In this document: piece by piece, positions 6,228 through 33,207 of the stretch
How the letters are laid out: each line of letters opens with the position of its first letter
Position numbering within the stretch: position 1 is the first letter of the stretch
From: Nanobdellota archaeon
GTDB taxonomy: Archaea; Nanobdellota; Nanobdellia; Woesearchaeales; GW2011-AR9
DNA: 49,891 nucleotides
Direction of reading: 5' to 3'
Assembly: GCA_038044525.1 (NCBI GenBank)
Contig: JBBSZV010000025.1
Location: forward strand, 1 to 49,891
The notes under the pieces: model-generated
Database searches by the model: none
Told to the model about the DNA's origin: nothing
The model's input: the letters and a program-made list of their open reading frames with translations, nothing else
Made by a program: the position numbers and the translations under genes

Positions 6228-6304
6228 GCTTATTTTCCTTCCACACCCAAAAGAATATATAGGTCTGCTTATTTTAGAGCTAAAAGTGAAGGGAGGTTTA
6301 AATT

Positions 6305-7009
6305 ATGGAAGAGATGCATAAAGTTGATTCAGCTGCGAAACCTAAAAAGTTTAGCAGTGATATGTTTTGGAAAGTCACTACTGTCGTATTGATCATAGTT
6401 TTAGTTGTGCTAACATTCAAAGGTAATAATAATTCTGCCCCTACCGGGGGCACGGTTGTTGACAACCCTGAACCGGCTGTCGCAGTTAATTTTGAAGACT
6501 TATTGGATGATGATGCCGTGAAAGGCGATGAAGATGCTCCAGTAACCATCATTGAATGGAGCGATTTTGAATGTCCTTTCTGCGCCAGGTTCTATCGTGA
6601 CACTTTACCCCTGATCGAAGAAGAATACATCAAAACCGGTAAAGTAAAATTAGTGTTTAGGGACTTTCCATTGAGTTTCCACCAGAACGCTCAGAAAGCG
6701 GCAGAAGCTGCGGAATGCGCTGGAGAGCAGGGAAAATTCTGGGAAATGCATGATTTACTGTTCGAGCAAGGAGTGGAAGGCGGCACGGCCGGATTCAAGC
6801 AGTACGCAAAACAATTGGGCTTAAATACTGCCAAGTTCAATGAATGTTTGGATTCCGGAGCGATGGCTTCGGAAGTGCGTAAAGATACAGCTGACGGAGC
6901 TGCCGCAGGAATTCAGGGAACACCAGGATTCTTAATAAACGGGAAACTGGTAAGCGGAGCACAGCCATTCAGCAGCTTTAAGCAAGTCATTGATGCTGAA
7001 CTGGAGTAA
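6305..7009 (+). CDS. DsbA-like thiol:disulfide interchange protein, membrane anchored
   Basis: 234 aa. N-terminal TM segment, then a thioredoxin fold with SDFECPFCARF and a DsbA-like helical insert. Confidence 0.8.
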   Translation: MEEMHKVDSAAKPKKFSSDMFWKVTTVVLIIVLVVLTFKGNNNSAPTGGTVVDNPEPAVAVNFEDLLDDDAVKGDEDAPVTIIEWSDFECPFCARFYRDTLPLIEEEYIKTGKVKLVFRDFPLSFHQNAQKAAEAAECAGEQGKFWEMHDLLFEQGVEGGTAGFKQYAKQLGLNTAKFNECLDSGAMASEVRKDTADGAAAGIQGTPGFLINGKLVSGAQPFSSFKQVIDAELE

Positions 7010-7101
7010 AAATTTTATTATTTTTTATTATTTATTTTAATATTATTTGAAATCGGCTCTAAGGTCAAAAAGATTATATAGGCGCAGCAATTATCTAAGT
7101 T

Positions 7102-7713
7102 ATGGTCTTTACGTTTGCCGCTTTGACTGCATTGAGCTTGTTCTCTCAACCTTATGCGCCGGAAACTGATTTTAAACTTGATATGTCAGCACCGTATTTT
7201 TCGCAGGAGACGGCTAAAAGACCAAAAGGCGATAATCAAAGGATCGCTGATATTATTTATGCTAAGATTCTTGCCCATACCCTTTACACGCAGATGGAAC
7301 AAAAAGAAAATATATTCGTCTTGTTCTTTGAAAGCTATGGCGGGAAGCATAAGGGATTTTATGTGGAAAGGAATCTGCCTGATGAGCCAAGACATCTTAT
7401 CCTCCATGCTGACGACCAGAAAAATGGAATTACTGCGGCCATCACCGTCCACGGAAAACTCAGCAGTATCGACAGCGTGATCCTTAAGAAATTCGAAGGC
7501 GGAAAACCTATCAAAAAGAGGGATATCTCTCCGGAAGATAAAGATGCGCTGCTGCTTTACAGAAGGATGCTGGAAGCGTCGGTCTGGCACATCGGCGGGG
7601 CAGAGGTAAGCAGAGATCCGGTCGGCTTTAACATCGCAAAATATGGCGGGCATATCAAAGATGATGAATTTGTCTCCTCTTTGGAAAATCTCATCAGCAA
7701 GGCTAATATGTAA
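7102..7713 (+). CDS. Hypothetical protein
   Basis: 203-aa ORF with an N-terminal hydrophobic segment. Confidence 0.4.
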   Translation: MVFTFAALTALSLFSQPYAPETDFKLDMSAPYFSQETAKRPKGDNQRIADIIYAKILAHTLYTQMEQKENIFVLFFESYGGKHKGFYVERNLPDEPRHLILHADDQKNGITAAITVHGKLSSIDSVILKKFEGGKPIKKRDISPEDKDALLLYRRMLEASVWHIGGAEVSRDPVGFNIAKYGGHIKDDEFVSSLENLISKANM

Positions 7714-7780
7714 TTTCTTTATATGGAAGTTTTTTAAGATTATTTATGGTTAACAAAGAAAAATATAAAAAAAATAAACT

Positions 7781-8182
7781 TTAAAATAGTTCCTTCTTAA
7801 GCAGTGCTTGTTCTAAACTCCATTTGCCGTTGCCATGCACAGCCACAATTATAAAACAGGCCAGGAATAAGAGCGCCAATTCTCCCTTATTTACTATCGG
7901 CACCAATCCCTGCGGGAAATGTACTGTTGCTAACGCGCCGACCATGATTGCTGTTCCGCCTACAGAAGCGAGCCTGGAGAAAAATCCTAACGTAATTGCC
8001 AATCCGCCGACCAGTTCGACCGTACCTGCAAAGCCCATCAGACTTAGCAGCGACACGGTTCCTTGAGAACCGAACCAACCTAACAACTTCTGCGCGCCAT
8101 GCTGCACAAACATTAACCCGACAATTACGCGAAATATCGCATACCCTTCCGCGTGATACTTCTGCAATTTCTTCAATACCAT
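7781..8182 (-). CDS. DoxX family membrane protein (second copy)
   Basis: 133 aa with 4 TM segments and DoxX-like sequence (FRVIVGLMFVQHGAQKL). Confidence 0.7.
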   Translation of the reverse strand: MVLKKLQKYHAEGYAIFRVIVGLMFVQHGAQKLLGWFGSQGTVSLLSLMGFAGTVELVGGLAITLGFFSRLASVGGTAIMVGALATVHFPQGLVPIVNKGELALLFLACFIIVAVHGNGKWSLEQALLKKELF

Positions 8183-8254
8183 TTGATAGCCTCCTTTTGT
8201 TTTGAGTTTTATTTAGGAGAAAGATATTTAAGCTTTCCGAAAACGCAGTTATAC

Positions 8255-8698
8255 ATGGACCCCTTGTGGATATTAGTTTTGGTTTTATTCATAGTGGTGG
8301 CTGCTCTCGCTTACCGGATTGGAGTTTCTGCCGGAGCTATGAAGCGGGATAAGCATTGGGAAGAACAAATCCCGGAAATCAAGAAAGATTCTATTGATCG
8401 TTCCAGAGCTTCACTAAGCGGACAGTTTTCTGAACAACTGGCGCCATATCTGCCTAATTTCAAGTACAAGCCGACGGAATGCAAATTTCTGGGCAAGCCG
8501 ATTGATTTGATTGTGTTCAGTGGATTAGATGAAAAAGCTGTTACGGAAATAGTGTTTGTGGAAGTGAAAAGCGGCGGTTCAGAACTGAATTCGGTGCAGA
8601 GAAAGATACGAGATGCAGTTAAAGAAGGAAGAGTCAGATGGGACGAATATAGGATTCCGAAGGAGTTGGTTATCAGAAAAGAAGAGAAATCTATTTAA
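8255..8698 (+). CDS. Membrane-anchored PD-(D/E)xK nuclease related to archaeal Holliday junction resolvase (Hjc-like)
   Basis: Start trimmed to ATG 8255. N-terminal TM segment, then IDLIVF...EIVFVEVKSG, matching the D-ExK core of the Hjc/COG4741 family. Confidence 0.5.
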   Translation: MDPLWILVLVLFIVVAALAYRIGVSAGAMKRDKHWEEQIPEIKKDSIDRSRASLSGQFSEQLAPYLPNFKYKPTECKFLGKPIDLIVFSGLDEKAVTEIVFVEVKSGGSELNSVQRKIRDAVKEGRVRWDEYRIPKELVIRKEEKSI

Positions 8699-8721
8699 AG
8701 AAGGAATTCATCAAGAAAAAT

Positions 8722-9438
8722 ATGGGATTGGTCCAGATATATGATACTCAGGAAGAAGTGTTGCAACGAGTACGGCAAGTAGTTTATGAATCTAACCTAA
8801 AAACCAGAGAAACACTAGAGAGCCTTACTAAAGCAGCTATGTCTGAGTACAGAGAAAAATCAGGTTTTGATGAACGATGGATCAGGAGGAATGAAGAATT
8901 CAAAAAGAAAAAACCTTGGGCGTCAACTTTTCCGCCAAATATGGTCCACTTGTCAGATGATGAGCAAAAAAATTTCAAGGAACAATATCATGATTTAGGA
9001 AAGGATTTGGAGCTTACTGTATTGGTTCATCTCTCCGCTGTTGGCGATGAATACAACTTTGACGATGTATCAGGCGGTATTGGTATAGGCTTTGTCGGAC
9101 CGTACAAAGATATAAGCTCTATGGCATTAGACATAAAGGACATTTTGCAACAGCTAAAAGGTAAATTCTCTGGAGCAAAACTAACTCCCGCCTTTTATAC
9201 TACTAAAGAAAATAAACCTCTTGTGCCGGAAGAAATAAGTAGTGATGTTGATGGTTGGCTAAACGGTATTGCGCAAGAAATGCAAGAAGATGATGATCTT
9301 CCAGAAGAAGCAAAGACTTCCATTTATGAAGAGCTAAGAGAGTTTGCTTCTTCTAAAGATAGGTATGGAGGACTGACCGAAGCAGAATGCGCAGAATTTG
9401 AAAGATTATTTTGCCAACAAGCCACTAATACCCCTTAA
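8722..9438 (+). CDS. Hypothetical protein
   Basis: 238-aa ORF with no recognisable motif. Confidence 0.4.
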   Translation: MGLVQIYDTQEEVLQRVRQVVYESNLKTRETLESLTKAAMSEYREKSGFDERWIRRNEEFKKKKPWASTFPPNMVHLSDDEQKNFKEQYHDLGKDLELTVLVHLSAVGDEYNFDDVSGGIGIGFVGPYKDISSMALDIKDILQQLKGKFSGAKLTPAFYTTKENKPLVPEEISSDVDGWLNGIAQEMQEDDDLPEEAKTSIYEELREFASSKDRYGGLTEAECAEFERLFCQQATNTP

Positions 9439-9841
9439 TCACTTTCTCTCTCAACAGCGTCGATTTATGCTTCCCTGATTTAAACGGTTTCGCGCGGCAT
9501 ATTTCCGGCTGCAAACCGCGTTCTTTTAACTTCACGACCAATTCTTTCTCGCTGATTTGATGATCGTATCCCAAGAAAATGACATCGGGTTTCTTTTCTT
9601 CAATAATCTTAAAATAGTCTTCAGGATAACCGAGCACCGTTTCGTCGACAATTTTTAATCCTTTTACCAACTCCAGGCGTTCCTTTTCAGAGAAAATAAT
9701 CTCTTTCTTTTGCATCAGTTTAGTTTTATCTAAGGCAATTACCACCATCAGATAATCCCCGTATTTCTTGGCCTGCTGAAAATAGTTAAGATGGCCCAGA
9801 TGCAATAAATCAAAAGTGCCGAAGCACATGACGGTTTTCAT
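9425..9841 (-). CDS. Cytidylyltransferase-like nucleotidyltransferase (RibL FAD synthase / TagD-like)
   Basis: 138 aa. GTFDLLHLGH (HxGH) motif at the N-terminus, typical of the small cytidylyltransferase family. Confidence 0.75.
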   Translation of the reverse strand: MKTVMCFGTFDLLHLGHLNYFQQAKKYGDYLMVVIALDKTKLMQKKEIIFSEKERLELVKGLKIVDETVLGYPEDYFKIIEEKKPDVIFLGYDHQISEKELVVKLKERGLQPEICRAKPFKSGKHKSTLLREKVIKGY

Positions 9842-9937
9842 AGTGGGAATTAATGGTTGTTAATTATTTAAATCTTTGCTTCAAACTCTCCCGCTAATTA
9901 CAAAGAGATAAGATTAAATAGTTTTTCATTTTTTAGA

Positions 9938-11131
9938 TTGGAAATGAAAAACACTATTAATCTCTCCCCCTGGTATGAAGATGAGAGAATAGTTGAAGAC
10001 TATCTAAAAGAAGCACCCAATAAGAAAGAAATTCATTGGTTTGATCTGCCTAATGGAACACAATTTTTACTAAAACACTTCCCAGATAATTTACATAGAT
10101 TGGGTAAAAGTAATTTTGTTAGTATAGAAAGATTGAAGAAAGCTTGTGGATTAAGTAAAGAAACTAATAACCTTATTATTGGAATAAAAAGAACGATGAA
10201 GGGAAATGATTGTTTAAATGTTAATTTTCCAATAAAATTAGAAAATCATGAGTACACAACTCTTTATTCATTGATGCTTTCTGAAGGATCTACTTCTTCC
10301 GAATTTTCGTTAAACGTTCCAGAACAATTTTTCCATGAGAGGTTCAAAATAAAAATAGGAAATTTAATATCTGAGGATTTTTCTAAAAATATTGCAGTAG
10401 ATTTCCAGAATGGCTTCAAGAGATCTAGAGCTCCTGCTAAAATAAGGCATTTAATTCCTGTAAGTGAACATATCCCCAAGTTTATTCTGCTTAACAAAGA
10501 ACTTGCTAGAGAATATCTTAAAATAGCTTTTGAGGCTGAGGGAAGCCCCATACTAAACAAGAATCAGATAAAAAGATATATTAAACTTTCCAGGTATGTT
10601 GATATTTCAAAATATGTAAATGTAGAACTACCTCCCGATAGAAGAGTTTATACTGGAGAGATTCAAGAAAAATACCCCTTACTCTACGATAAAATCAAGG
10701 AATTTCCCCCGCTTCCACTATTAGGTGAATTTATTCTTCTAAAAAAGCATTTTAGTATTAATAGTAAAATCACTTTAGAAGCAATTAAACAAAATAAAAC
10801 TGCTTTTCGAGCAGGTAAGGTTAGTGCACGTTGGACGTTACTAATCTATGCAGACGACATAAATAGATTCATTGAAGAGATTAATTTTATTTCAAAGAAA
10901 AAAAGAGAAATGTGTGAAGAAATGTTAAAAATTAGAGCAAATAGACGCCAGTATTCAACATTCGAGTTTATTAGAGCAGTTGAAAAAAATGGAATTATAG
11001 CAAGAAAAGATTTCGTAAGCATCATGAAGAAACAAGGCTACAAAAGCCCAAGCTGTTATATTCACCGATTTGAGAAAAAAGGTTTACTAGAAAGAATTGA
11101 GAATGGGAAATATAAATTACTTGTTAATTAA
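9938..11131 (+). CDS. Hypothetical protein with two LAGLIDADG-like helices and a C-terminal winged-helix
   Basis: 397 aa. Two helix-(S/A)EGS motifs (LMLSEGS, AFEAEGS) about 110 aa apart, and a basic wHTH-like C-terminus. Confidence 0.35.
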   Translation: MEMKNTINLSPWYEDERIVEDYLKEAPNKKEIHWFDLPNGTQFLLKHFPDNLHRLGKSNFVSIERLKKACGLSKETNNLIIGIKRTMKGNDCLNVNFPIKLENHEYTTLYSLMLSEGSTSSEFSLNVPEQFFHERFKIKIGNLISEDFSKNIAVDFQNGFKRSRAPAKIRHLIPVSEHIPKFILLNKELAREYLKIAFEAEGSPILNKNQIKRYIKLSRYVDISKYVNVELPPDRRVYTGEIQEKYPLLYDKIKEFPPLPLLGEFILLKKHFSINSKITLEAIKQNKTAFRAGKVSARWTLLIYADDINRFIEEINFISKKKREMCEEMLKIRANRRQYSTFEFIRAVEKNGIIARKDFVSIMKKQGYKSPSCYIHRFEKKGLLERIENGKYKLLVN

Positions 11132-13228
11132 GATAGCTTTTTTTATTATCAATTGGCCTGAATTTTCCGAACTCATTGATTTTCCCGTTTTTATTAATAA
11201 TATTTTTTTCTTAAACAATGGGCAATCTAGAACTACTGTTTCGGCTTCACCGCCTTCAAAAGCTTCATTAATTCCTACTTTTTTATGTAATTTTTTAAGA
11301 TCATCAATCATTTTCTGATCGATTTTCCTTCCTAACCAACCCTTATCCAATCCTTCTGCGGCGACTGAAGTTAAAATAATCTCAAATCCGTTGTCAAGCA
11401 GTTCCTGCATATGCTGATCCTGCGGCTTATGCCATAAGGGGGAAAATATCTTCAGGCCTAATTTATCGCAGATATTTTCGATCCGATCCCGCTGGTATGT
11501 CGAGAATAATGCGCCGGAAACTACACCTTCTATCCGATATTGCTCTTTTGCTTTCAGCAGGGCGGTTTCCAGATCCTCCAGCTCTGCTTCTTTCTCGCCT
11601 TTGGTTTTCTGGATGATGATCGGCAATCCCATCGCTTCTGCCTGCAATTCTACCAGCTCGGTTCCTGCGGTTTGGAACATATACGAATCTGGATTTTCTG
11701 ATCGGATATGGATAAGGCAGGTTAATCCATAATTCTGTTGTTTCATTATGTACGCCGCTGCCGTGGAATCTTTTCCGGAAGAGAATAAAACGCCCAGTTT
11801 TACATTGTGAGAGGGATAAAATGTTTTTAGATAGGCTGATTTTGAAGGAAATTTGTTTTTCTTAGCTAATTTTCCCAGCGCATAATCAAATTTGGAGCCG
11901 TACTGTGCGGCCGTCTTTTTGCGGAAGGCAGATCCTTGCGGAATCCCTTTTTCCAAAGCAATAACCCGCAGGATGTATTTAGTGACCCCTTCTTTGATCT
12001 TGTACTTGCCGGGAATCTTCAAAGCGTAATCTATCAGCTTTAGATCCAAAAATGGAAGGCGCAGCTCCAAGCTATTATCCATGGTGAGCACATCATCCCG
12101 GTATAAGTCGCGTTCATACATTTTTAACAACCCAGACACGCATTCCTGATTGATGTTCGCGGAATTCTTATGCCGCTCATAGCCGGCAAATATCTCTTCG
12201 CTGCCCAAGCCGGAGAAAATAACCTTGCAGCCATCTTCCTTAGCCATCTCACAGGCAACATAGAAAGTCAACGCTACGCCAACTTTTACTACATTAGAAT
12301 CTTCGATCAAAGGGACAATTTTTTGCAGATAGGAAGATATCTCTTCCAATTTAATTTTTTTGACTTTCAATTTCAGCCCTAACTCCCGGGCAACCTTTTG
12401 TGCGGATTCCAGATCGGCAGGGACGGCTTCTGAATCTAATACTGCGGTATAACAAGTGAAATCGCAGCCCCGATCTTTAAAGGATTTGGCCAGATAAGTG
12501 GAGTCTATCCCCCCAGAAAATAAAAGGCCGAATCTCTTGCCGGGAATCCTTTTTTCGACAGCCTGGTCAAGAAGGGCGGCAGTTTTTTCTTTAAGAATAT
12601 CAAATGATTCTGCAGTTTCTGGAAGATAAGAAAAAAATTCCCGATTGATGAATTCTAATCGGTTTTCTTTTAATCCATATTTGATCCTGCTTCTCGGATT
12701 GAGTTCCTGGATGTCGAGAAAACCTAACTTTTCCAGCGCTTTCTTTTCGGAAGCGAAAGCAAAAGCATCGGTGTTATGGACAAACCAGAGCGGTTTTTCT
12801 CCCAGGATGTCTCTGGCCAGATAGAGGGTATTTTCTTTCCAATAAGCAAAAGCGTAAACTCCGTCCAGCTCCTGAAGGTTATCTATCCCAAATTTATCTA
12901 AGAAAGATAAGAGCAGTTCTGCATCGTTTTTGACCTTAAAATTATATTTTCTATTAAGTTCTTCCCAATTGTAAATCTCGCAGTTAGCCGCCAATAAGCC
13001 TTCTTTCTTCAAGGGCTGGGGCACTTGGCTTACTACTGCGTGCAGGGAATGACCGAGAAAATGTTTGCCGGATAAAGAAGTGAATTCATCCAGCTCTTTA
13101 TGATGCTGGATTTCCCTGCTGCCGGCGATGCCGAAACCATCCCGGCCCCGGTTATGAAGCAGAGCTAACGCCGTTTTTACTTTAGCAAACGCGTCCTTTT
13201 GGTTGAAAATCCCGATGATGCCACACAT
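11117..13228 (-). CDS. Asparagine synthetase (glutamine-hydrolysing) fused to a Dph6/MJ0570-like PP-loop ATPase domain
   Basis: 703 aa. N-terminal MCGIIG Ntn glutaminase, central SGGIDS PP-loop (AsnB), then a C-terminal domain with SSGKDS and EGGEAETVVLDCPLF, which is the MJ0570/diphthine-ammonia ligase signature. Confidence 0.8.
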   Translation of the reverse strand: MCGIIGIFNQKDAFAKVKTALALLHNRGRDGFGIAGSREIQHHKELDEFTSLSGKHFLGHSLHAVVSQVPQPLKKEGLLAANCEIYNWEELNRKYNFKVKNDAELLLSFLDKFGIDNLQELDGVYAFAYWKENTLYLARDILGEKPLWFVHNTDAFAFASEKKALEKLGFLDIQELNPRSRIKYGLKENRLEFINREFFSYLPETAESFDILKEKTAALLDQAVEKRIPGKRFGLLFSGGIDSTYLAKSFKDRGCDFTCYTAVLDSEAVPADLESAQKVARELGLKLKVKKIKLEEISSYLQKIVPLIEDSNVVKVGVALTFYVACEMAKEDGCKVIFSGLGSEEIFAGYERHKNSANINQECVSGLLKMYERDLYRDDVLTMDNSLELRLPFLDLKLIDYALKIPGKYKIKEGVTKYILRVIALEKGIPQGSAFRKKTAAQYGSKFDYALGKLAKKNKFPSKSAYLKTFYPSHNVKLGVLFSSGKDSTAAAYIMKQQNYGLTCLIHIRSENPDSYMFQTAGTELVELQAEAMGLPIIIQKTKGEKEAELEDLETALLKAKEQYRIEGVVSGALFSTYQRDRIENICDKLGLKIFSPLWHKPQDQHMQELLDNGFEIILTSVAAEGLDKGWLGRKIDQKMIDDLKKLHKKVGINEAFEGGEAETVVLDCPLFKKKILLIKTGKSMSSENSGQLIIKKAILINK

Positions 13229-13251
13229 ATATACTACGGAATATAGGTGTT

Positions 13252-14346
13252 TTATAAAAGTTTATGGGGATTAGGGAAGGTTCTTCTACCTAACTCTTTT
13301 GTTATCCATTCTTCCTGCTTTTGGCAAATGGTGTAGGAATTGCCCAGTAAGGCATAACCTTTCCAACCGTTAAAAATATCAAATACTTGCTGCACAGAGA
13401 CTTTTTCTGATCCATAATCTTCAAAAAGCAAAATCATCTTTCTTCGGAAGGTGCGTAGATTGCGTTTCCTAATTAATTTATGATGATAAAAAATGCGGAA
13501 GCCAAGAAGATTTATCCCGCTACTCAAGGGAATTATTTTACACTTATCTGAATGCAGCTCAACCCTGAGAGAAGATAAAAATTCTTTTATTTTAGGTTCA
13601 TATTCCCGAAGAGCTGTTTTTGATTGATGAAAAACAACAAAGTCATCAACATAGCGAAGATAATATTTTGCTTTCAATTCATGCTTGACAAAATGATCTA
13701 ACTCATGAAGGTAAATGTTGGCAAAGAACTGGCTGGTCCAGTTGCCTAGAGGCATGCCCTTTCCAGAAACACCAGAATTGTAGTTGTTGAGAATTGCAGT
13801 AATCAGCCATAATACCTCTTGGTCTTTAATCCTCTTGCTGATAATGCCTATTAACAACTTATGATCAACATTATCAAAGTAACGCTTAATATCGCACTTT
13901 AAAGCATAACCTTTGACTTGGTTGTTGTTTTTAGCTTCTTTGACCAATCTTCCATTTCGGGTTACTTTTCGGATAAAAATAGCTGCTCGCTTCAGCGCTA
14001 AAAATGTTCCCTTGCCTCTTCTGCTGGCGTGACTATCGTAAATGAATCTCGGCTCAAAGATAGGCTGCAAGATATTAACTAAAGCATGATGAACGATCCG
14101 ATCCCGGAATTGGCTGACGCAGATACGCCGCGTTTTAGGGTCGCGAAGAATAAAAATCTTCAGGGGTTGGGGTTGATAGGTTTTATTGCACAATTCATGA
14201 TGCAGTTTCCAAAGATGATACTGCCAATGCTCAGCAAATTCAGCTACGGAAGGCGGGGATAATTTTCCTTTTTTTGCTTTTTGGTATGCTATTTGCAAAT
14301 TATCAAAAGAACAAAGCTTTTGGTATAATTTCTGGTATGTTTTCAT
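13252..14346 (-). CDS. Diversity-generating retroelement reverse transcriptase
   Basis: Start trimmed to ATG at 14344-14346 (MKTYQ...). Carries the RT motif 5 YxDD (YLRYVDDFVVF), the DGR-specific motif 4 LGNWTSQ (SQ in place of QG), and an N-terminal SFDNLQIAYQKAKKGK. It lies directly downstream of the TR. Confidence 0.8.
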   Translation of the reverse strand: MKTYQKLYQKLCSFDNLQIAYQKAKKGKLSPPSVAEFAEHWQYHLWKLHHELCNKTYQPQPLKIFILRDPKTRRICVSQFRDRIVHHALVNILQPIFEPRFIYDSHASRRGKGTFLALKRAAIFIRKVTRNGRLVKEAKNNNQVKGYALKCDIKRYFDNVDHKLLIGIISKRIKDQEVLWLITAILNNYNSGVSGKGMPLGNWTSQFFANIYLHELDHFVKHELKAKYYLRYVDDFVVFHQSKTALREYEPKIKEFLSSLRVELHSDKCKIIPLSSGINLLGFRIFYHHKLIRKRNLRTFRRKMILLFEDYGSEKVSVQQVFDIFNGWKGYALLGNSYTICQKQEEWITKELGRRTFPNPHKLL

Positions 14347-14383
14347 GCCTGAAAAAATCCTCAAAATGCTAAGGCAGTCTATT

Positions 14384-14460
14384 CCGCGAGAAGCCCTGTT
14401 GTTGTAGTTGCAGCTGTTGACATTGAACCTGTTGTTGAAGTTGCCACGACCAGCAGGCAG
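14384..14460 (-). repeat. DGR template repeat (TR)
   Basis: 77 bp matching 14723-14799. 7 of 8 mismatches fall at TR adenines on the coding (minus) strand. In the target frame it encodes seven AAC and one AAT Asn codons. Confidence 0.7.
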
Positions 14461-14691
14461 CTCAGTAGCCCCGCCACCTTTCGTTTTCACTGCTGCTCCA
14501 GTCGTTCATCCAAAAGATTACTTGCTGTTGCAGCTGTATTTTATAGCAATGTTGACTAAAAGCCAAGCTCTTGCCGTGATGGCAGGACGTGTAGTCCACC
14601 CTCTCACCTAGCCGCAGTGTGCTGCGGTATGGGGCATTTTGAGGACAACAAACAGGGAAATGATCATTATAAAAAACTTATCGCACATGGT

Positions 14692-15384
14692 TCATTTTTT
14701 CGCGCGCGACGACGGGACTACCCCGCGAGAAGCCCTGTTGTTGTAGTTGTAGCTGCCGACATAGAACCTGCTGCCGAAGCTGCCACGACCAGCAGGCAGA
14801 ATCTGTCCGTCAGCAGGCAAGTATAACTGCGCTCGTTTACCGTCTTCACACATTGCCTGCGGCAGCTGCGCAAACTTCCGCGTGTACAAAAATTCAACAA
14901 GATCATTGCCAAACTGGTTCAAATCGACCAATTTAGTTGATGGAATGCCGGCGATAGAAAAATCTCTCTTACTTTCAAACGTGAAATTTTCCATCACATA
15001 AGTAGAACCATTCCACACCAATCCTTCTGGATCGGTGTAAATTGTAAGTTTATCTTTGTTTCTTTCCATCGCCGCACTCAGCCATTCGCCATAGCTGTTC
15101 AGCATGTCCTCAGCTATTGATTTCTGTTCAGCAGTTACTTTGTTTTCAAGATTGGCGATCAGCAGGCCGAACACTTCCTGCGGACGAGGATGTCTGGTTT
15201 GACCGCGGCTTCTCAAACTGGCCAGGCTAGCGTCGTAGGTCAAAAGTTTCTTATTGCTGCCTTCGTAGGTGGCTTTCGCTTCAAACTTCACATCCTGAAG
15301 CACCAAATAATCGTCTAAGCTATAAGGTGGTTTGATTATCGGCTCCTTTTTCTCTTTCCAGCCAAGACTAAAATCTACCGGCAT
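14692..15384 (-). CDS. DGR variable (target) protein with C-terminal VR
   Basis: 230 aa. The last ~35 aa are encoded by the VR (LPAGRGSFGSRFYVGSYNYNNRASRG). No signal peptide. The ATG lies immediately after the TAA stop of the upstream gene, in the same frame. Confidence 0.7.
   Translation of the reverse strand: MPVDFSLGWKEKKEPIIKPPYSLDDYLVLQDVKFEAKATYEGSNKKLLTYDASLASLRSRGQTRHPRPQEVFGLLIANLENKVTAEQKSIAEDMLNSYGEWLSAAMERNKDKLTIYTDPEGLVWNGSTYVMENFTFESKRDFSIAGIPSTKLVDLNQFGNDLVEFLYTRKFAQLPQAMCEDGKRAQLYLPADGQILPAGRGSFGSRFYVGSYNYNNRASRGVVPSSRAKK
14723..14799 (-). repeat. DGR variable repeat (VR)
   Basis: Counterpart of the TR. TR AAC codons read as AGC/GGC and TR AAT as TAT in the VR. GC-rich IMH-like sequence at 14701-14722, which is absent from the corresponding TR flank. 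Confidence 0.7.
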
Positions 15385-16749
15385 TTAAATCCCCTCTTTC
15401 ACGGTCAATATATAATCAATCGCACTGGACAACAGCGTTTCAGCGTTTTTATGCGTCATTCTTCTCTCTTGATACGCTTGCATCAGCTGCGGTAATTTTG
15501 CGCCATGGGTCTTCTGCGCCTGCACCAGATCGGCAACGATATATGAAACTGCTTCTTCCGAAAGCTGATCCAGCATCTCCCAGAACGTTTTCTGTCCGGG
15601 AAGCTCGACTGCCTGAATAGAGTTATACGCTCTCACGAAAGAAGAAAAATCGTCAATTTTGGCGGCAATGTTTTCAGCTTGGGTAAGCAGGGTCAGGCTC
15701 GGCTTCACTTCTGCAGCATAGACCAGCTCTACTCCTTTGCTGGGAAGTTCTGATATGCTCTCTAAAGGAACCCCAGAATTGATCAGCCATTCTGTTTTAT
15801 CTCTTCCAACTTTACTTTCCAATCCGGCAATCTTTTCAGCTAACCCTTCGGTAAGACGTTCTTCAAAGAATCGCTCAAAGAAAGGTTTACCGGTTTCGTT
15901 GAAGTATCCCCAACGTTTATCCTTATGCACTTCAATGGCGCCAGTTTTGGTTTTAGCAGCGCTACCAAACGTATCTTCTCTATCAATAGCGCATCTTAAT
16001 CCGTTCTTCAACAGGACATGATGTTCTTTATGATTCGCCGCCGCCAAATACAGTTCTCCCTGCTGGTGCACTTCGTTGTATCCAAAAGCTGCTTTCAAGA
16101 ATGTATCAACTCCGGGCGGGGAATAATTAACTACCACTTTCTGACCATCAAGCCGTGCATCATAGCCCAGCTTGATCAGATTCCCTGCAGCTTTTTCAGC
16201 ATTGCTCAATTTAAAGACAGCTCGAGGGTGCCCTAAGCGCTGATAAGCCTGCACTACTTTCAATGGATCCTGCATCTCTTCTAAGGACACAAATTCACCT
16301 AAGGAAATTCCATCCTGGAGCGGAGCAGCGCGATTTCCATCCAGTAAGTTCAGCGTCTGCAGCAGGTGATATTCAGCATTCTGAGCAAAAAGAGCAACAA
16401 AATCAGCCGGAACAAAGAAATCCATGGCCAGCTGGGCAAGATTTTCTAAGAAAACTTTACCGTCCTTGTTATCTTTCCAATAATGCGCCTGAAAGCGATC
16501 ATAATTCTGCAGCAATGGATTTTCAGTTGCTGCTTGTTCTATGGCATTGATACGAGGATCCCATTGTTCAGAGTAAAGCCCTTTAAAGACAGTAGACATC
16601 CTATAAGCCAATTTTTGGTATTCCTTAGGATGCTGGGGCGTTCCTTTAGCGATACTTTCTGCCCGGACAGCATCCATATCTTTCAGTAAAGAATCCAAAT
16701 CTTTGCGCAGATCTGCATCCCGAATATCAACTTTGATTTTTGTGTTCAT
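15385..16749 (-). CDS. Hypothetical protein (DGR operon)
   Basis: 454-aa ORF. Its stop codon directly abuts the target gene's ATG. Confidence 0.5.
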   Translation of the reverse strand: MNTKIKVDIRDADLRKDLDSLLKDMDAVRAESIAKGTPQHPKEYQKLAYRMSTVFKGLYSEQWDPRINAIEQAATENPLLQNYDRFQAHYWKDNKDGKVFLENLAQLAMDFFVPADFVALFAQNAEYHLLQTLNLLDGNRAAPLQDGISLGEFVSLEEMQDPLKVVQAYQRLGHPRAVFKLSNAEKAAGNLIKLGYDARLDGQKVVVNYSPPGVDTFLKAAFGYNEVHQQGELYLAAANHKEHHVLLKNGLRCAIDREDTFGSAAKTKTGAIEVHKDKRWGYFNETGKPFFERFFEERLTEGLAEKIAGLESKVGRDKTEWLINSGVPLESISELPSKGVELVYAAEVKPSLTLLTQAENIAAKIDDFSSFVRAYNSIQAVELPGQKTFWEMLDQLSEEAVSYIVADLVQAQKTHGAKLPQLMQAYQERRMTHKNAETLLSSAIDYILTVKEGI

Positions 16750-16815
16750 GTTGTGCCTCCATAAGCGTAGTTATGCTGATTGGTATTCTGTTCTTTAGGT
16801 TGGATTTGGATCAGA

Positions 16816-26779: not shown

Positions 26780-27712
26780 ATGAAACGTAAATTAGTCCAG
26801 CAGGGAACGACCACTTTAATGGTTTCCCTGCCCAGCGATTGGATCCAGCGCTTCAAGCTAAAAAAAGGGCAGGAAGTGGACATCACTGATGTCAAAGATC
26901 ATCTCATCATCGCTTCTTCGGAACGAAAACACCAGAAAGAAACTATCCTATCCTTCAAAACCCATACGGAATCAGCGATCAGACTGACATTAATCAATGC
27001 CTATCGTGCTGGATATGATGTTTTAACCATAAAAAATATTGACAAAGGACAGCTTAATATCATCAGAGAAGTCCTCCAGAATTATCTTCTGGGGATGGAA
27101 ATAACGCATCAAGATAAAGGAACCTGCATTATTGAAAGCATCACTGAGCCGCACGAAGAGAAATTTGACTTGATCTTCCAGAAAATCTTTAACGGCATTG
27201 CTTCCATGATCCAAAGTACTGCGGCAAGAATAAAAAACAACACGCCATTTACTGATTATGAGTTCACCATGCTGAATATCCACAAGTACGATAATTTCTG
27301 CCGAAGGATGATGACCAAGCAGAATATTTATTCTGACAAAGCAATCTTCTTCTGGAACTTTCTAAGTTTGGTCATCCATGCTCCCAGAGAATTGTACCAT
27401 CTTAACAAGTATTTAGATAAGCAAAAACCAAAATTATCCGTAAAAGAAAGCGCCATGCATGCACAATATCTTTTTTCATTACAAGAACTGTTTTTGATGT
27501 TACGCCATGCTTATCAGGAAAAAAATCTTTCTGCCATAGAAAAAGTACATGAAAAATCTAAGGGGCTGCTGTTTACTAATCTTTATGATGCGATGAAGAA
27601 AAATAATAGCAACCAGATAATATTGCACCATATCGGTATGGCTTTGCGAAACCTGTATCTTTCCACCAGCCCTTTGCTGGGGCTTCTTTTAGAGAAAGAT
27701 TCTACTTCGTAA
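26780..27712 (+). CDS. AbrB/SpoVT-domain + PhoU-like regulator
   Basis: 310 aa. N-terminal swapped-hairpin AbrB-like segment (QQGTTTLMVSLPSDWIQRFKLKKGQEV), then a helical PhoU-like body, as seen in archaeal COG0704-type proteins. Confidence 0.5.
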   Translation: MKRKLVQQGTTTLMVSLPSDWIQRFKLKKGQEVDITDVKDHLIIASSERKHQKETILSFKTHTESAIRLTLINAYRAGYDVLTIKNIDKGQLNIIREVLQNYLLGMEITHQDKGTCIIESITEPHEEKFDLIFQKIFNGIASMIQSTAARIKNNTPFTDYEFTMLNIHKYDNFCRRMMTKQNIYSDKAIFFWNFLSLVIHAPRELYHLNKYLDKQKPKLSVKESAMHAQYLFSLQELFLMLRHAYQEKNLSAIEKVHEKSKGLLFTNLYDAMKKNNSNQIILHHIGMALRNLYLSTSPLLGLLLEKDSTS

Positions 27713-27713
27713 A

Positions 27714-29471
27714 TCATTTCTTCCATTCTCCGTGAAAACTTTGCAAGTTCTGCCGAGCCCGCCGGTATGTCTCAGGATCATAACTTTCAAGAATCTTTCT
27801 TGCTTCTTCTATTACCGGTTCTTTAAACTGCACTTTAGGAAGAAACTTATCTTGGCCGTCAATAGTGATGGCCCGCGGAATTTCTACCTGATAAAAATCT
27901 CCCAATAATCCCCGCGGCCAGATCATCATGCAGCCTTCTCTGCCGGCATTGAGAAATTCCAGCAAAACCTTAGCCTCATCAATAAACCCAGCATCAGCAC
28001 ATTGCTGCAGCATCGCATATTTTTTCTCTTCTTCAACAGAAAGAGTATCTGCCGGAAATATTTTTGCTGCAGTGATCAGCCAGCAATCATACGGCTGCAG
28101 AATCTGCACCTCTTCATGCAAACTGCCAACTTCGCCCCCTAATAAGGTATGCGCTTCCAAAATTTGCTCATCGTTATGGGCTATCACCAGAGTGCGGCGA
28201 TAATCTTCTCTCCAGCCCGGCGACCAGGTTCCGAAGGAATAATAATCTGCTTCATCGGTAAGTTTAAGCATGAGTTTGCCGGCATTTAAAGAATAGATCT
28301 CCTTGCTGGTGCTGGAAATTATTCGGTCACCGCCAAAACCATGATGCTGAAGGCTATTTTCTCTATCTCGTTTTCCATATTTCATGACCATTCCTGCTGC
28401 CATTTCTATCACTGCATCTATTTCTGGAGCAGCTTTTCCTTTATTTATGCCCTCCAGATCCCTGCGCAGGACTTTGTCCAAGGGCATCACTAATTCTAAA
28501 GATCTGCCAACAGCATAGTCAAAATCTTCCTTAAATTTGGCATGGGCTTCTTCAGAACTGAGATTCACATAGCTTTTTCGTTCCAAAGAAAGGCAGTTCA
28601 GCAGCAGTTCCTTAAAGCGTACCGGAACCGGTTCTATTTCTTGTTCCAGCTTTGCATCATGCTCTTCGGGAGAGATGCTAACCAGCCTCAGTTCATCTTC
28701 TTCCAGGGCAATGTAAATTTTTTCATCTCTAATTTCTAAAGGCGTTCCGTCATCAACAATATTCACTTTATATCGAAACGGCGGTTTTCCTACCAAGGCA
28801 TAAAATAATGTTGCGCCTAAAGCATAAAATTCCGTAGCTATAGTCGCTCTATTTGGAAGACCCTGTAAAAGTGTATTAACTAAATCGGGATGAGTATAGC
28901 CCGTAGCTCCTCTGGTGGGCATAAGTTTCAGTTCTATATCATTCACTAACGAAGCAGTTTGAAAATCAGCCACTTTCACTAAATCTGTCTGTCGACCGAT
29001 CAGGATATTAGAAGGTTTAAGATCGCGGTGCAAGATATCTCCCCCTGCATGAAGATAGCGCAGCGCATCAGTTACTTGGGAAAAAACAATCTTTAAAAAA
29101 TCCTGATTTAGGATCGGCCCTTGCATCCTAACTTTCTCTTCTAAAGAAATAGCATCGAAATGCTCTTCAATGATGATTTTTCTCTTTTCATCCTGAAGCA
29201 GGTCATATATTTGGACAATATTAGGGTGGTTAATGATATTAAGTAATTCAATTTCTCTTTCACTTAATCTATCTTTTGTTTTATTTATTTTATGTTGAAC
29301 AGAATCACCACCATTAGGGCGCTCCCATTTTGCTACAAATCTTCGTTTCAGTTCCCCTTTATGGCGGACTACTTCATAGGCTACCCGAAAGTAACCTTCT
29401 CCGATTTTTCGCCGCAAGGCATAATTATTCCGGTTCAATAGCGCAATCAGTTCTAAATCAAAATCTGCCAT
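27714..29471 (-). CDS. Hanks-type Ser/Thr protein kinase with ~300-aa C-terminal domain of unknown function
   Basis: 585 aa. Glycine loop IGEGYFRVAY, VAK lysine, catalytic loop HRDLKPSNILI, and DFQ in place of DFG. Confidence 0.8.
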   Translation of the reverse strand: MADFDLELIALLNRNNYALRRKIGEGYFRVAYEVVRHKGELKRRFVAKWERPNGGDSVQHKINKTKDRLSEREIELLNIINHPNIVQIYDLLQDEKRKIIIEEHFDAISLEEKVRMQGPILNQDFLKIVFSQVTDALRYLHAGGDILHRDLKPSNILIGRQTDLVKVADFQTASLVNDIELKLMPTRGATGYTHPDLVNTLLQGLPNRATIATEFYALGATLFYALVGKPPFRYKVNIVDDGTPLEIRDEKIYIALEEDELRLVSISPEEHDAKLEQEIEPVPVRFKELLLNCLSLERKSYVNLSSEEAHAKFKEDFDYAVGRSLELVMPLDKVLRRDLEGINKGKAAPEIDAVIEMAAGMVMKYGKRDRENSLQHHGFGGDRIISSTSKEIYSLNAGKLMLKLTDEADYYSFGTWSPGWREDYRRTLVIAHNDEQILEAHTLLGGEVGSLHEEVQILQPYDCWLITAAKIFPADTLSVEEEKKYAMLQQCADAGFIDEAKVLLEFLNAGREGCMMIWPRGLLGDFYQVEIPRAITIDGQDKFLPKVQFKEPVIEEARKILESYDPETYRRARQNLQSFHGEWKK

Positions 29472-32138: not shown

Positions 32139-32765
32139 ATGTTAACGCCCAAACAGATTAAAATATTTGAAGCATTTCTGAGAAAACCTTACAAAGAGCT
32201 TACTTATAAGGAGATAAAAAATTACTCAAAAGAAAAATCAAATTCAATCATTCAAAAAGCAGTGGTGAAATTTCTCGCAGAAGAACTTGTCAAAAAAAGA
32301 GAAGTTGGAAATATCATTTTATATGCTATAAATTTGGATAATAGCACTGTTTTTTCATACTTTGAGATACTCATAAAAGATAAAAGCCATAACCTTGTTA
32401 AAAATAGCTTGAAGATAATCAGGGAAGAATTATCAAACACTGAATTTATATCTCTTGTAATATTTGGATCATATGCTGAAGGAAAGCAAAAAGAAAAATC
32501 TGATTTAGATATTGCAATCTTCGTAAATTCAATAGGGGATAAAAAGAATTGTGAATTATCTATGAAGTCTGCTGAACTGAAATCCATTCTAAAGATAGAT
32601 GTCCAGGTCATTACAAAAGTCGAAATGCTTCAAATGTTAAAAGATAAACACGAAAATTTGGGAAAACAGATAGCTTACAAGCACTTAGCCATTCAAAATC
32701 CAATCATCTTTTATTCGATACTTCAGGAGGGGATAAATAATGGATTCAAAATTGTATATTCATAG
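32139..32765 (+). CDS. Minimal nucleotidyltransferase (MNT) with N-terminal wHTH (second pair)
   Basis: 208 aa. Motif LVIFGSYAEGKQKEKSDLDIAIFV. Overlaps the downstream HEPN ORF. Confidence 0.7.
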   Translation: MLTPKQIKIFEAFLRKPYKELTYKEIKNYSKEKSNSIIQKAVVKFLAEELVKKREVGNIILYAINLDNSTVFSYFEILIKDKSHNLVKNSLKIIREELSNTEFISLVIFGSYAEGKQKEKSDLDIAIFVNSIGDKKNCELSMKSAELKSILKIDVQVITKVEMLQMLKDKHENLGKQIAYKHLAIQNPIIFYSILQEGINNGFKIVYS

Positions 32766-33207
32766 AGCGGAAAATGAGATAAAGTTAGCAGGAATAATCT
32801 TTGCAATCAGTGAAGAGCCAAACATACAAAAAGAGACTTTCAAAGTCAATGATCCAGAAACATATTATAGCGCGGTTATTGCACATAGCTATTACAGTAT
32901 ATTTTATGGGGCGAAGGCATATCTTGTAAAGAAAGGAATTGAAGTTTCTGCTCCAGAAGAACATAAAAAAGCATTCACAGAATTCAAAAAATTTGTTGAA
33001 AATGGAGAACTTGACGTTGAACTTCTAAATATATACCAAGAAGCGTTGGTTCGAGCAGAATACTTGTTAGGGCTATTCAAGGAAGAGAAGAAAAAAAGGG
33101 GGGAATTTACATACAGAACAATGCCGCAAGCAAACAAAGAACCCGCAAAAGAGAGCATGGAACATGCAAAAATATTTTTCAAGCACATGTTTGCAATTTT
33201 TAATTAG
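32740..33207 (+). CDS. HEPN domain protein (partner of MNT, second pair)
   Basis: 155 aa, helical; overlaps the MNT gene's 3' end. Confidence 0.55.
   Translation: MDSKLYIHRAENEIKLAGIIFAISEEPNIQKETFKVNDPETYYSAVIAHSYYSIFYGAKAYLVKKGIEVSAPEEHKKAFTEFKKFVENGELDVELLNIYQEALVRAEYLLGLFKEEKKKRGEFTYRTMPQANKEPAKESMEHAKIFFKHMFAIFN

Follow-up and report, generated by a model that had tools for sequence, protein, structure and literature searches.

A predicted chromosomal diversity-generating retroelement in a Nanobdellota archaeon, and the RT-16 RNA conserved ahead of its template repeat

Introduction

Does contig JBBSZV010000025.1 of a Nanobdellota archaeon (assembly GCA_038044525.1) carry a diversity-generating retroelement (DGR), and if so, of which type and with which parts? 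We analysed positions 1 to 49,891 of this contig; this whole stretch is referred to as the window. A reading made from the letters alone, hereafter the original prediction, had proposed a complete DGR, consisting of a target gene with a variable repeat (VR), a template repeat (TR) and a reverse transcriptase (RT).

Judged by its sequence, the element is a DGR complete in its essentials and belongs to the DPANN/nanoarchaeal type described in 2015; its activity is presumed. We consider it very probable that the locus is a chromosomal DGR of this clade that works by the mechanism proposed below. A conserved structured RNA ahead of the TR, RT-16, probably forms part of the DGR machinery.

Results

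Template and variable repeats differ at adenines

The original prediction described a TR and a VR of 77 nt each (14384–14460 and 14723–14799) with eight differences, seven of them A in the TR and G or T in the VR. Both statements are borne out: seven of the eight mismatches fall on TR adenines (six A>G, one A>T; p = 2.2e-4), and the homology extends to 82 nt as a direct repeat on the minus strand (Table 1). The full alignment contains 10 mismatches (eight A>G, one A>T and one G>A). Nine of these occur at TR adenines, which make up 23 of the 82 TR bases (hypergeometric p = 2.3e-5), and the adenine bias, which had been set beforehand as a test, thus holds. Across the 49.9-kb window, a TR pattern with each adenine replaced by N matched the TR and VR sites only, with 0 matches expected by chance; no further VR beyond 14718–14799 was found in the window by this search.

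The target open reading frame (ORF) contains the VR at its 3' end, in frame 0, and in this frame the TR and VR encode NFNNRFNVNSCNYNN and SFGSRFYVGSYNYNN, respectively. These peptides, and the seven AAC and one AAT asparagine codons of the TR, had been predicted correctly, but only five of the eight codons are changed in the window VR. All adenines in the copied portion of the TR lie at codon position 1 or 2 (AAY codons), and stop codons are impossible. By computation, the TR can give rise to 1.1e12 variants at the DNA level and 3.7e11 at the protein level.

Two classes of mismatch call for a separate explanation. The two 3'-most A>G differences separate GGGGTAG, in the initiation of mutagenic homing sequence (IMH) of the VR, from GGAATAG in its TR counterpart (IMH*). 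As far as the sequences tell, they are a fixed IMH/IMH* signature of nanoarchaeal DGRs and not products of mutagenesis, because they are constant in all VR copies, occur clade-wide (GGGGT(A/G) in the VR and GGAAT(A/G) in the TR, a contrast shared by most of ~30 related loci compared) and match the published nanoarchaeal signature, TGGGGT/TGGAAT in DUSEL4 (Paul et al., 2015; PMC4372165). The second class is the single non-adenine mismatch, a G>A between TR position 14411 and VR position 14750. This mismatch is real, but it is not the exception to the adenine rule for which it had been taken. Position 14411 is G in the window and A in seven sister contigs with the same RT (L004–L009 and L090; Hainich groundwater metagenomes). 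An independent contig, L091, combines the TR G variant with the exact VR of the window, so the G is a real strain allele. On this sequence comparison, the mismatch is a TR polymorphism: a point mutation in the TR of this strain, with the VR retaining the ancestral A.

Variation within one groundwater population follows the same rule. At contig level, near-identical target genes carry seven distinct VR haplotypes, against two TR alleles that are one base apart; VR heterogeneity with a near-constant TR is therefore found at this level. With the sister-strain TR as reference, 60 of the 61 substitutions across the seven haplotypes fall on adenines, which account for 21 of 76 sites (28%); where a haplotype is shortened, each deletion was positioned so as to minimise non-adenine mismatches in this count. 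The window VR differs from the sister-strain TR at seven sites within the 76 nt upstream of the IMH, all of them adenines.

The target is a lectin-fold protein with a C-terminal variable region

The AlphaFold2 model of the 230-aa target is confident (pLDDT 86, pTM 0.83). Its fold is closest to two DGR variable proteins, TaqVP and AvpA (PDB 5ioo), the latter being a DUSEL4 nanoarchaeal DGR variable protein with a solved structure. According to the model, the target is a C-type-lectin-fold protein with the VR in its C-terminal part. TaqVP (Thermus aquaticus; PDB 5vf4) differs from the target in being bacterial and 381 aa long, at 11% identity. No match to the target was found in Pfam, NCBIfam or PADLOC, and no sequence-level similarity was detectable between the target family and solved structures, including AvpA.

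A word-indexed search retrieved 22 target homologues and a full profile search 493 cluster representatives. Most family members are 200–300 aa long and stand alone. In the alignment, a hypervariable segment of ~15 residues is bordered by two conserved motifs, LPxDGQIxPxGRG and RASRGV.

Some relatives of the target are fused to other sequences. P0159 (1026 aa) joins a Ser/Thr kinase to two copies of the target domain, and in other fused relatives (P0160, P0173, P0197, P0204 and P0273 are listed with P0159) the domain is C-terminal in proteins of 650–700 aa without a Pfam match. These fusions hint that the variable domain may serve as a sensor. The target domain is not contained in the Ser/Thr kinase encoded in the window.

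The reverse transcriptase is of DGR type

Two sequence motifs had been named for the RT, and both are present: LGxxxSQ (motif 4) is located at residue 200, and the YxDD motif, here YVDD, at position 232. Residues M1, K2 and T3 are conserved in 28 relatives, which identifies the ATG at 14346 as the true start. The 412-aa RT ORF of public gene calls, which begins at GTG 14490, is an over-extension across the TR; several RT relatives have similar N-terminal over-extensions, with lengths of 390–450 aa.

Among solved structures, the best match to the RT is the 328-aa chain of 8ub7, which aligns over the whole length (E = 3e-43, 151 bits), whereas group II intron RTs reach E = 1.8e-22 and ~83 bits. 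The chain is deposited as 'Reverse transcriptase'; we take it to be bRT of the Bordetella phage, with which the cryo-EM paper on that element agrees. In this alignment, R74 and I181 of bRT correspond to R73 and L200 of the window RT. Both bRT residues bear on adenine mutagenesis. The motif and the best solved relative point the same way: in sequence terms, the RT is of DGR type.

The proposed order, target(VR)–TR–RT, is confirmed on the minus strand, with only 33 nt from the TR to the RT start codon. The epithet 'complete' holds for the RT, the TR/VR pair, IMH and IMH* and the lectin-fold target. It does not extend to an Avd gene, none having been found in the window, and it overlooked a 186-nt RNA described below.

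The locus belongs to a clade of DPANN elements

A genome scan combined with RT alignment gave at least 587 confirmed relatives. The best 80 were kept, and nearly all of these come from DPANN archaea, in line with the host predicted from the sequence. An adenine-biased repeat is present in 52 of the 80 loci, with the TR copy ending 18–91 nt before the RT start; the window therefore follows the standard plan of its clade. Because the window also encodes PCNA, an archaeal phosphoenolpyruvate carboxylase, GatE, a DNA ligase and TIM, the DGR is chromosomal.

Archaeal cellular DGRs were first described in DUSEL4 Nanoarchaeota (Paul et al., 2015, Nat Commun; PMC4372165), and contig AQRL01000028 of a DUSEL4 genome (Nanoarchaeota SCGC AAA011-G17; L018) is among the best 80 relatives. 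The DUSEL4 elements and the window share an RT clade (the L018 RT is 52% identical to the window RT), the target(VR)–TR–RT order and the contrast of GGGGT with GGAAT. L018 also has RT-16 upstream of its TR, and the window repertoire lies inside the range published for nanoarchaeal DGRs, 7e10 to 9e12 (Paul et al., 2015; PMC4372165). Unlike in DUSEL4, a GRA-triloop hairpin is not evident after the window VR. The space between target and RT also differs: in DUSEL4 it holds small ORFs, which were marked Avd-like by size and isoelectric point alone (Paul et al., 2015; PMC4372165), whereas in the window the VR–TR gap is RNA, not gene.

A conserved structured RNA precedes the template repeat

The VR–TR gap is occupied by a full-length, 186-nt match to RT-16, the sole Rfam match in the window, which reaches the start of the TR; its structured domain ends 7 nt before the TR. 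RT-16 is one of the RNA motifs RT-1 to RT-19 that were found near RT genes and left without an assigned role; a DGR link was made for RT-10 alone, which is the BPP-1 spacer, and a DGR function was speculated for others (Weinberg et al., 2017; PMC5737381). The window copy conforms to the Rfam family in that it scores above the gathering score and lies on the RT strand upstream of the RT gene. It departs from it in that it abuts a TR and in that the first hairpin of the model is unsupported. We found no published link between RT-16 and DGRs within a limited literature search.

The association is conserved across the clade. The Rfam model detects RT-16 in 16 of 19 related loci, while our own model of its core, R1, which scores 116.9 bits on the window, matches 72 of the best 80 related RT loci. 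Where both core and TR could be placed, the 3' end of the core lies at most 6 nt from the TR start in 45 of 51 loci. The helices are supported by covariation in 73 distinct sequences: 95.8% of cells are paired, compared with 32–52% when the partners are slid, and 18 of the 19 pairs show compensatory changes.

A second, long-range helix frames the whole template region. In the window, the first hairpin of the Rfam model is not kept and contains many non-canonical pairs; instead, its 5' half pairs with a strand downstream of the TR. The resulting closing helix, P0, comprises 13 bp in the window and encloses RT-16 plus the TR. Between loci the P0 strands vary and their complementarity is kept, as in TGTCCCTGCAG/CTGCAGGGACA, TGCCCTAGAGGG/TCCTCTAGGGCA and TTTTGTCTCGAC/GTCGAGACAAAA. 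Matched strands from the same locus beat mismatched locus pairs (Mann–Whitney p = 2e-27), and 61% exceed the 95th percentile of the null. A TATA-like box lies 21–28 nt upstream of the P0 5' strand, and most related loci have a similar A/T box at a similar distance. By archaeal promoter geometry, this suggests that the transcript begins at P0.

The arrangement can be compared with the Bordetella BPP-1 DGR (Mtd, Avd, TR, spacer RNA and bRT; cryo-EM structure 8ub7). There, the TR needs an upstream segment and a 140-nt downstream spacer, which wrap bRT–Avd and give the primer, and sequences upstream and downstream of the TR form a duplex, the 'cPRT Stop'; duplexes of this type were predicted in 207 of 278 Avd-containing DGRs, with an average of 13 bp (bioRxiv 10.1101/2023.10.23.563531). 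The two systems have in common a homologous RT with the LGxxxSQ motif, adenine-specific transfer from TR to VR, a C-type-lectin-fold target with a C-terminal VR, and IMH/IMH*. P0 resembles the cPRT Stop in length and topology. In contrast to BPP-1, no Avd was found in the window, and P0 encompasses both RT-16 and the TR. In the window the large structured RNA is on the 5' side of the TR, in BPP-1 on the 3' side, and ~185 nt separate the TR from the closing duplex's upstream strand, which adjoins the TR in BPP-1. Finally, the BPP-1 element is phage-borne and that of the window chromosomal and archaeal.

Three further observations concern RT-16. In seven of the best 80 loci (L037, L038, L064, L065, L066, L081 and L083) its core is on the strand opposite the RT, and the RNA/TR cassette may there be inverted or detached from the RT gene. 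A weak Rfam match to RT-11 (22.7 bits; 14488–14624, minus strand) overlaps RT-16, and the two motifs share GGACUACACG and ACAGCnGCAACAG...GAAGCnGCAGUG; from this shared sequence, RT-11 may be the counterpart of RT-16 in a different clade of DGRs. A pairing of the conserved GGACUACACG of RT-16 with the VR IMH (GTAGTCC) was considered and dropped, as the resemblance fails in other loci.

The contig is a mosaic within the target gene

The window resembles two different sister contigs. Positions 14688–16752 match L001 at 97.7%, with a 100% identical 454-aa protein, and positions 6231–15192 match L004 at 99.1%. The AAA+ gene, the 454-aa gene and the 5' end of the target are on the L001-like side, the 3' end of the target, the RT and an asparagine synthase gene on the L004-like side, and the switch between the arrangements falls inside the conserved middle of the target gene. 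In L004–L006 and the 150-kb contig L090, a 648-aa gene plus target occurs twice in tandem upstream of the RT. L001 has two tandem targets and no RT; in L001 and L002, target homologues are present, but no RT, TR or RT-16 was found within reach.

The mosaic may reflect natural recombination between target paralogues or an assembly chimera. In the latter case the DGR would be real, but the contig would have been joined through the repeated target gene, and the 454-aa gene and the AAA+ operon would not be its true neighbours. The switch between the two matches inside the target gene and the different arrangement upstream of the RT in L090 and L004–L006 both speak for such a join. We nevertheless think it unlikely, as target paralogues are visibly mosaic in all strains, which makes natural recombination equally plausible. 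Moreover, L091 shares both the VR and the TR G of the window and independently confirms the stretch from VR through RT-16 and TR to RT.

Is the element active?

Several observations weigh against an element that operates as we propose. The TR G at 14411 has not been copied to the VR; there has therefore been no homing since this mutation, and activity may be rare. The VR haplotypes reappear in identical form across several samples and independent contigs, and turnover is therefore not fast. Relative to the 82-nt TR, all but one of the seven VR haplotypes lack 3 nt (one of them 9 nt), deletions that simple copy-and-replace does not predict. No Avd-like Pfam match was found among the 47 ORFs of the window, to which the search was confined. 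Avd is essential in the Bordetella system and present in many DGRs, not all. No convincing hairpin follows the window VR (DNA fold of 14670–14745, z = 0.16), just a stem of 4–5 bp (CGGGG/TCCCG) and a (CG)4 palindrome; clear hairpins with GAA/GGA triloops can be seen at many of the related loci. Lastly, the case for a role of RT-16 and P0 consists of position and covariation in sequence alignments.

The shorter haplotypes (L001:8592–8664, L001:9441–9519, L004:2679–2757, L004:5296–5374, L092 and L093) otherwise differ almost solely at adenines. The shortening may have arisen by slippage on a template rich in AAC, from another, shorter TR located elsewhere, or through recombination that spread an old deletion.

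The recurring haplotypes, the uncopied TR G, and the missing Avd and weak hairpin could also be understood if the locus were a DGR by descent that is now inactive or nearly so, its VR differences being old and inherited. This strikes us as improbable. The ORF of the RT is intact and no catalytic motif is missing from it, and just one of the 61 VR differences is at a non-adenine, which argues that the rewriting of the VRs is recent when set against the background rate of mutation. At least seven haplotypes exist among strains with flanks that are 98–99% identical, and purifying and compensatory selection clearly acts on the RNA scaffold across the clade.

Finally, the notion that the RT is of group II intron, retron or defence type, with the repeat a chance duplication, can be set aside almost entirely and is refuted within the limits of sequence analysis: it draws on the source annotations of RT relatives ('group II intron reverse transcriptase' or 'retron-type') and on weak matches to the TIGR04416 and DRT models, but every such match is under its curated cut-off (162 bits against 300 for the TIGR04416 group II equivalog model, and far under it for all NCBIfam retron, DRT and Abi models), Rfam found no group II intron or retron RNA family in the window, and the DGR-specific motif, bRT as the best solved relative and the adenine-only mismatch pattern repeated in 52 related loci all stand against it.

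Proposed mechanism and significance

For an active chromosomal DGR, the following sequence of events is proposed. A single RNA would start from the TATA-like promoter and contain, in order, the P0 5' strand, the RT-16 domain, the 82-nt TR, the P0 3' strand and the RT mRNA. The RT translated from it would copy the TR into cDNA, with random bases placed opposite template adenines; the adenine-only pattern is what the seven VR haplotypes display, and the copying step is modelled on the homologous bRT. The cDNA would then replace the VR at the 3' end of the gene for the 230-aa lectin-fold protein. The direction of transfer would be set by IMH versus IMH*, leaving the TR unchanged. Up to ~4e11 variants of a 15-residue patch, free of stop codons, could result.

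RT-16 and P0 would act in cis as an RNA scaffold, holding the template in position and setting a limit to cDNA synthesis, a putative counterpart of the Bordetella spacer and cPRT Stop RNA in a DGR without a nearby Avd gene. A bolder version, which we put forward tentatively and consider somewhat less probable than its opposite, is that the two elements are the essential cis scaffold of an Avd-less archaeal clade. In that role they would replace the Bordetella 3' spacer RNA and Avd in template positioning, priming and termination, and the RNA architecture would be reversed relative to the only DGR of known mechanism.

As a DGR, the locus extends the DPANN catalogue by a further family of hypervariable C-type-lectin proteins, a useful but ordinary gain. 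Its wider value is the RNA. RT-16, so far without an assigned function, keeps a conserved place next to the TR, on its 5' side, in DPANN DGRs (the window and ~70 relatives), and in the window and its relatives a covarying helix joins the 5' edge of RT-16 to sequence just past the TR. The RNA from 14646 to 14344 together with the 364-aa RT makes a testable construct for cDNA priming and stopping in DGRs without Avd or a long spacer.

Neighbouring genes

Table 1. Features of the retroelement and of its surroundings in the window.
Feature	Position	Strand	Evidence or remarks
DGR reverse transcriptase, 364 aa, start MKTYQ	13252..14346	-	Pfam RVT_1 E = 4e-24; LGNWTSQ, YVDD
P0 3' strand (GCAUUUUGAGGAU)	14357..14369	-	10 nt after TR, ends 11 nt before RT start codon
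Template repeat (TR), 82 nt	14379..14460	-	Repeat comparison with VR
IMH* (GGGCTTCTCGCGGAATAG)	14379..14396	-	TR 3' end
RT-16 RNA (Rfam RF03019); conserved core 14461-14604	14460..14645	-	Rfam 73.2 bits, gathering score 50
RT-16 helix P2	14579-14588 pairs 14468-14477	-	Covariation
RT-16 helix P3	14525-14534 pairs 14492-14501	-	Covariation
P0 5' strand (GUCCUCAAAAUGC), long-range closing helix	14634..14646	-	Minimum free energy fold and cross-locus test
TATA-like box (TTTTATAA), putative archaeal promoter of RT-16/TR/RT transcript	14667..14674	-	
Target gene, 230-aa variable protein, predicted C-type-lectin fold, VR at C-terminus	14692..15384	-	
Variable repeat (VR), 82 nt; substitutions in window copy at 14756-14780	14718..14799	-	Repeat comparison
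IMH-like VR 3' end (GGGCTTCTCGCGGGGTAG)	14718..14735	-	Identical in 7/7 VR haplotypes
454-aa gene	15385..16749	-	Stop codon abuts target ATG; 3 homologues in 5.8e9 proteins
AAA+ ATPase, two AAA domains	18719-20338		
Fic	21195-22163		
Nucleotidyltransferase	22137-22778		
PIN	26241-26660		
MazE-like	26780-27712		
Ser/Thr kinase	27714-29471		
Nucleotidyltransferase + HEPN pair	32139-33207		

The 454-aa gene upstream of the target is regarded as genomic context and a possible DGR partner. Its product has no match in Pfam, NCBIfam or PADLOC; its AlphaFold2 model is poor (pLDDT 64), and a Foldseek search of this model against the PDB returned nothing at E <= 1e-3. Two candidate relationships were rejected: the protein has no similarity to the N-terminal part of the fused target relatives P0173 and P0204, and it is unrelated to the 648-aa partner of the target in L004.

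Directly downstream of the RT, at 11117–13228 on the minus strand, is the gene for a 703-aa asparagine synthase fusion (GATase, Asn_synthase and a diphthamide-synthase-type ATP-binding domain), which is conserved in sister contigs. A stretch resembling a conflict island (18719–29471 and 32139–33207; Table 1) adjoins the DGR, and a Fic gene is also found near the target homologues in L001 and L002. A 753-aa protein encoded at 23587–25848 (minus strand) combines a major-vault-protein shoulder domain (E = 6e-29) with a vault repeat domain, which is unusual for a DPANN archaeon.

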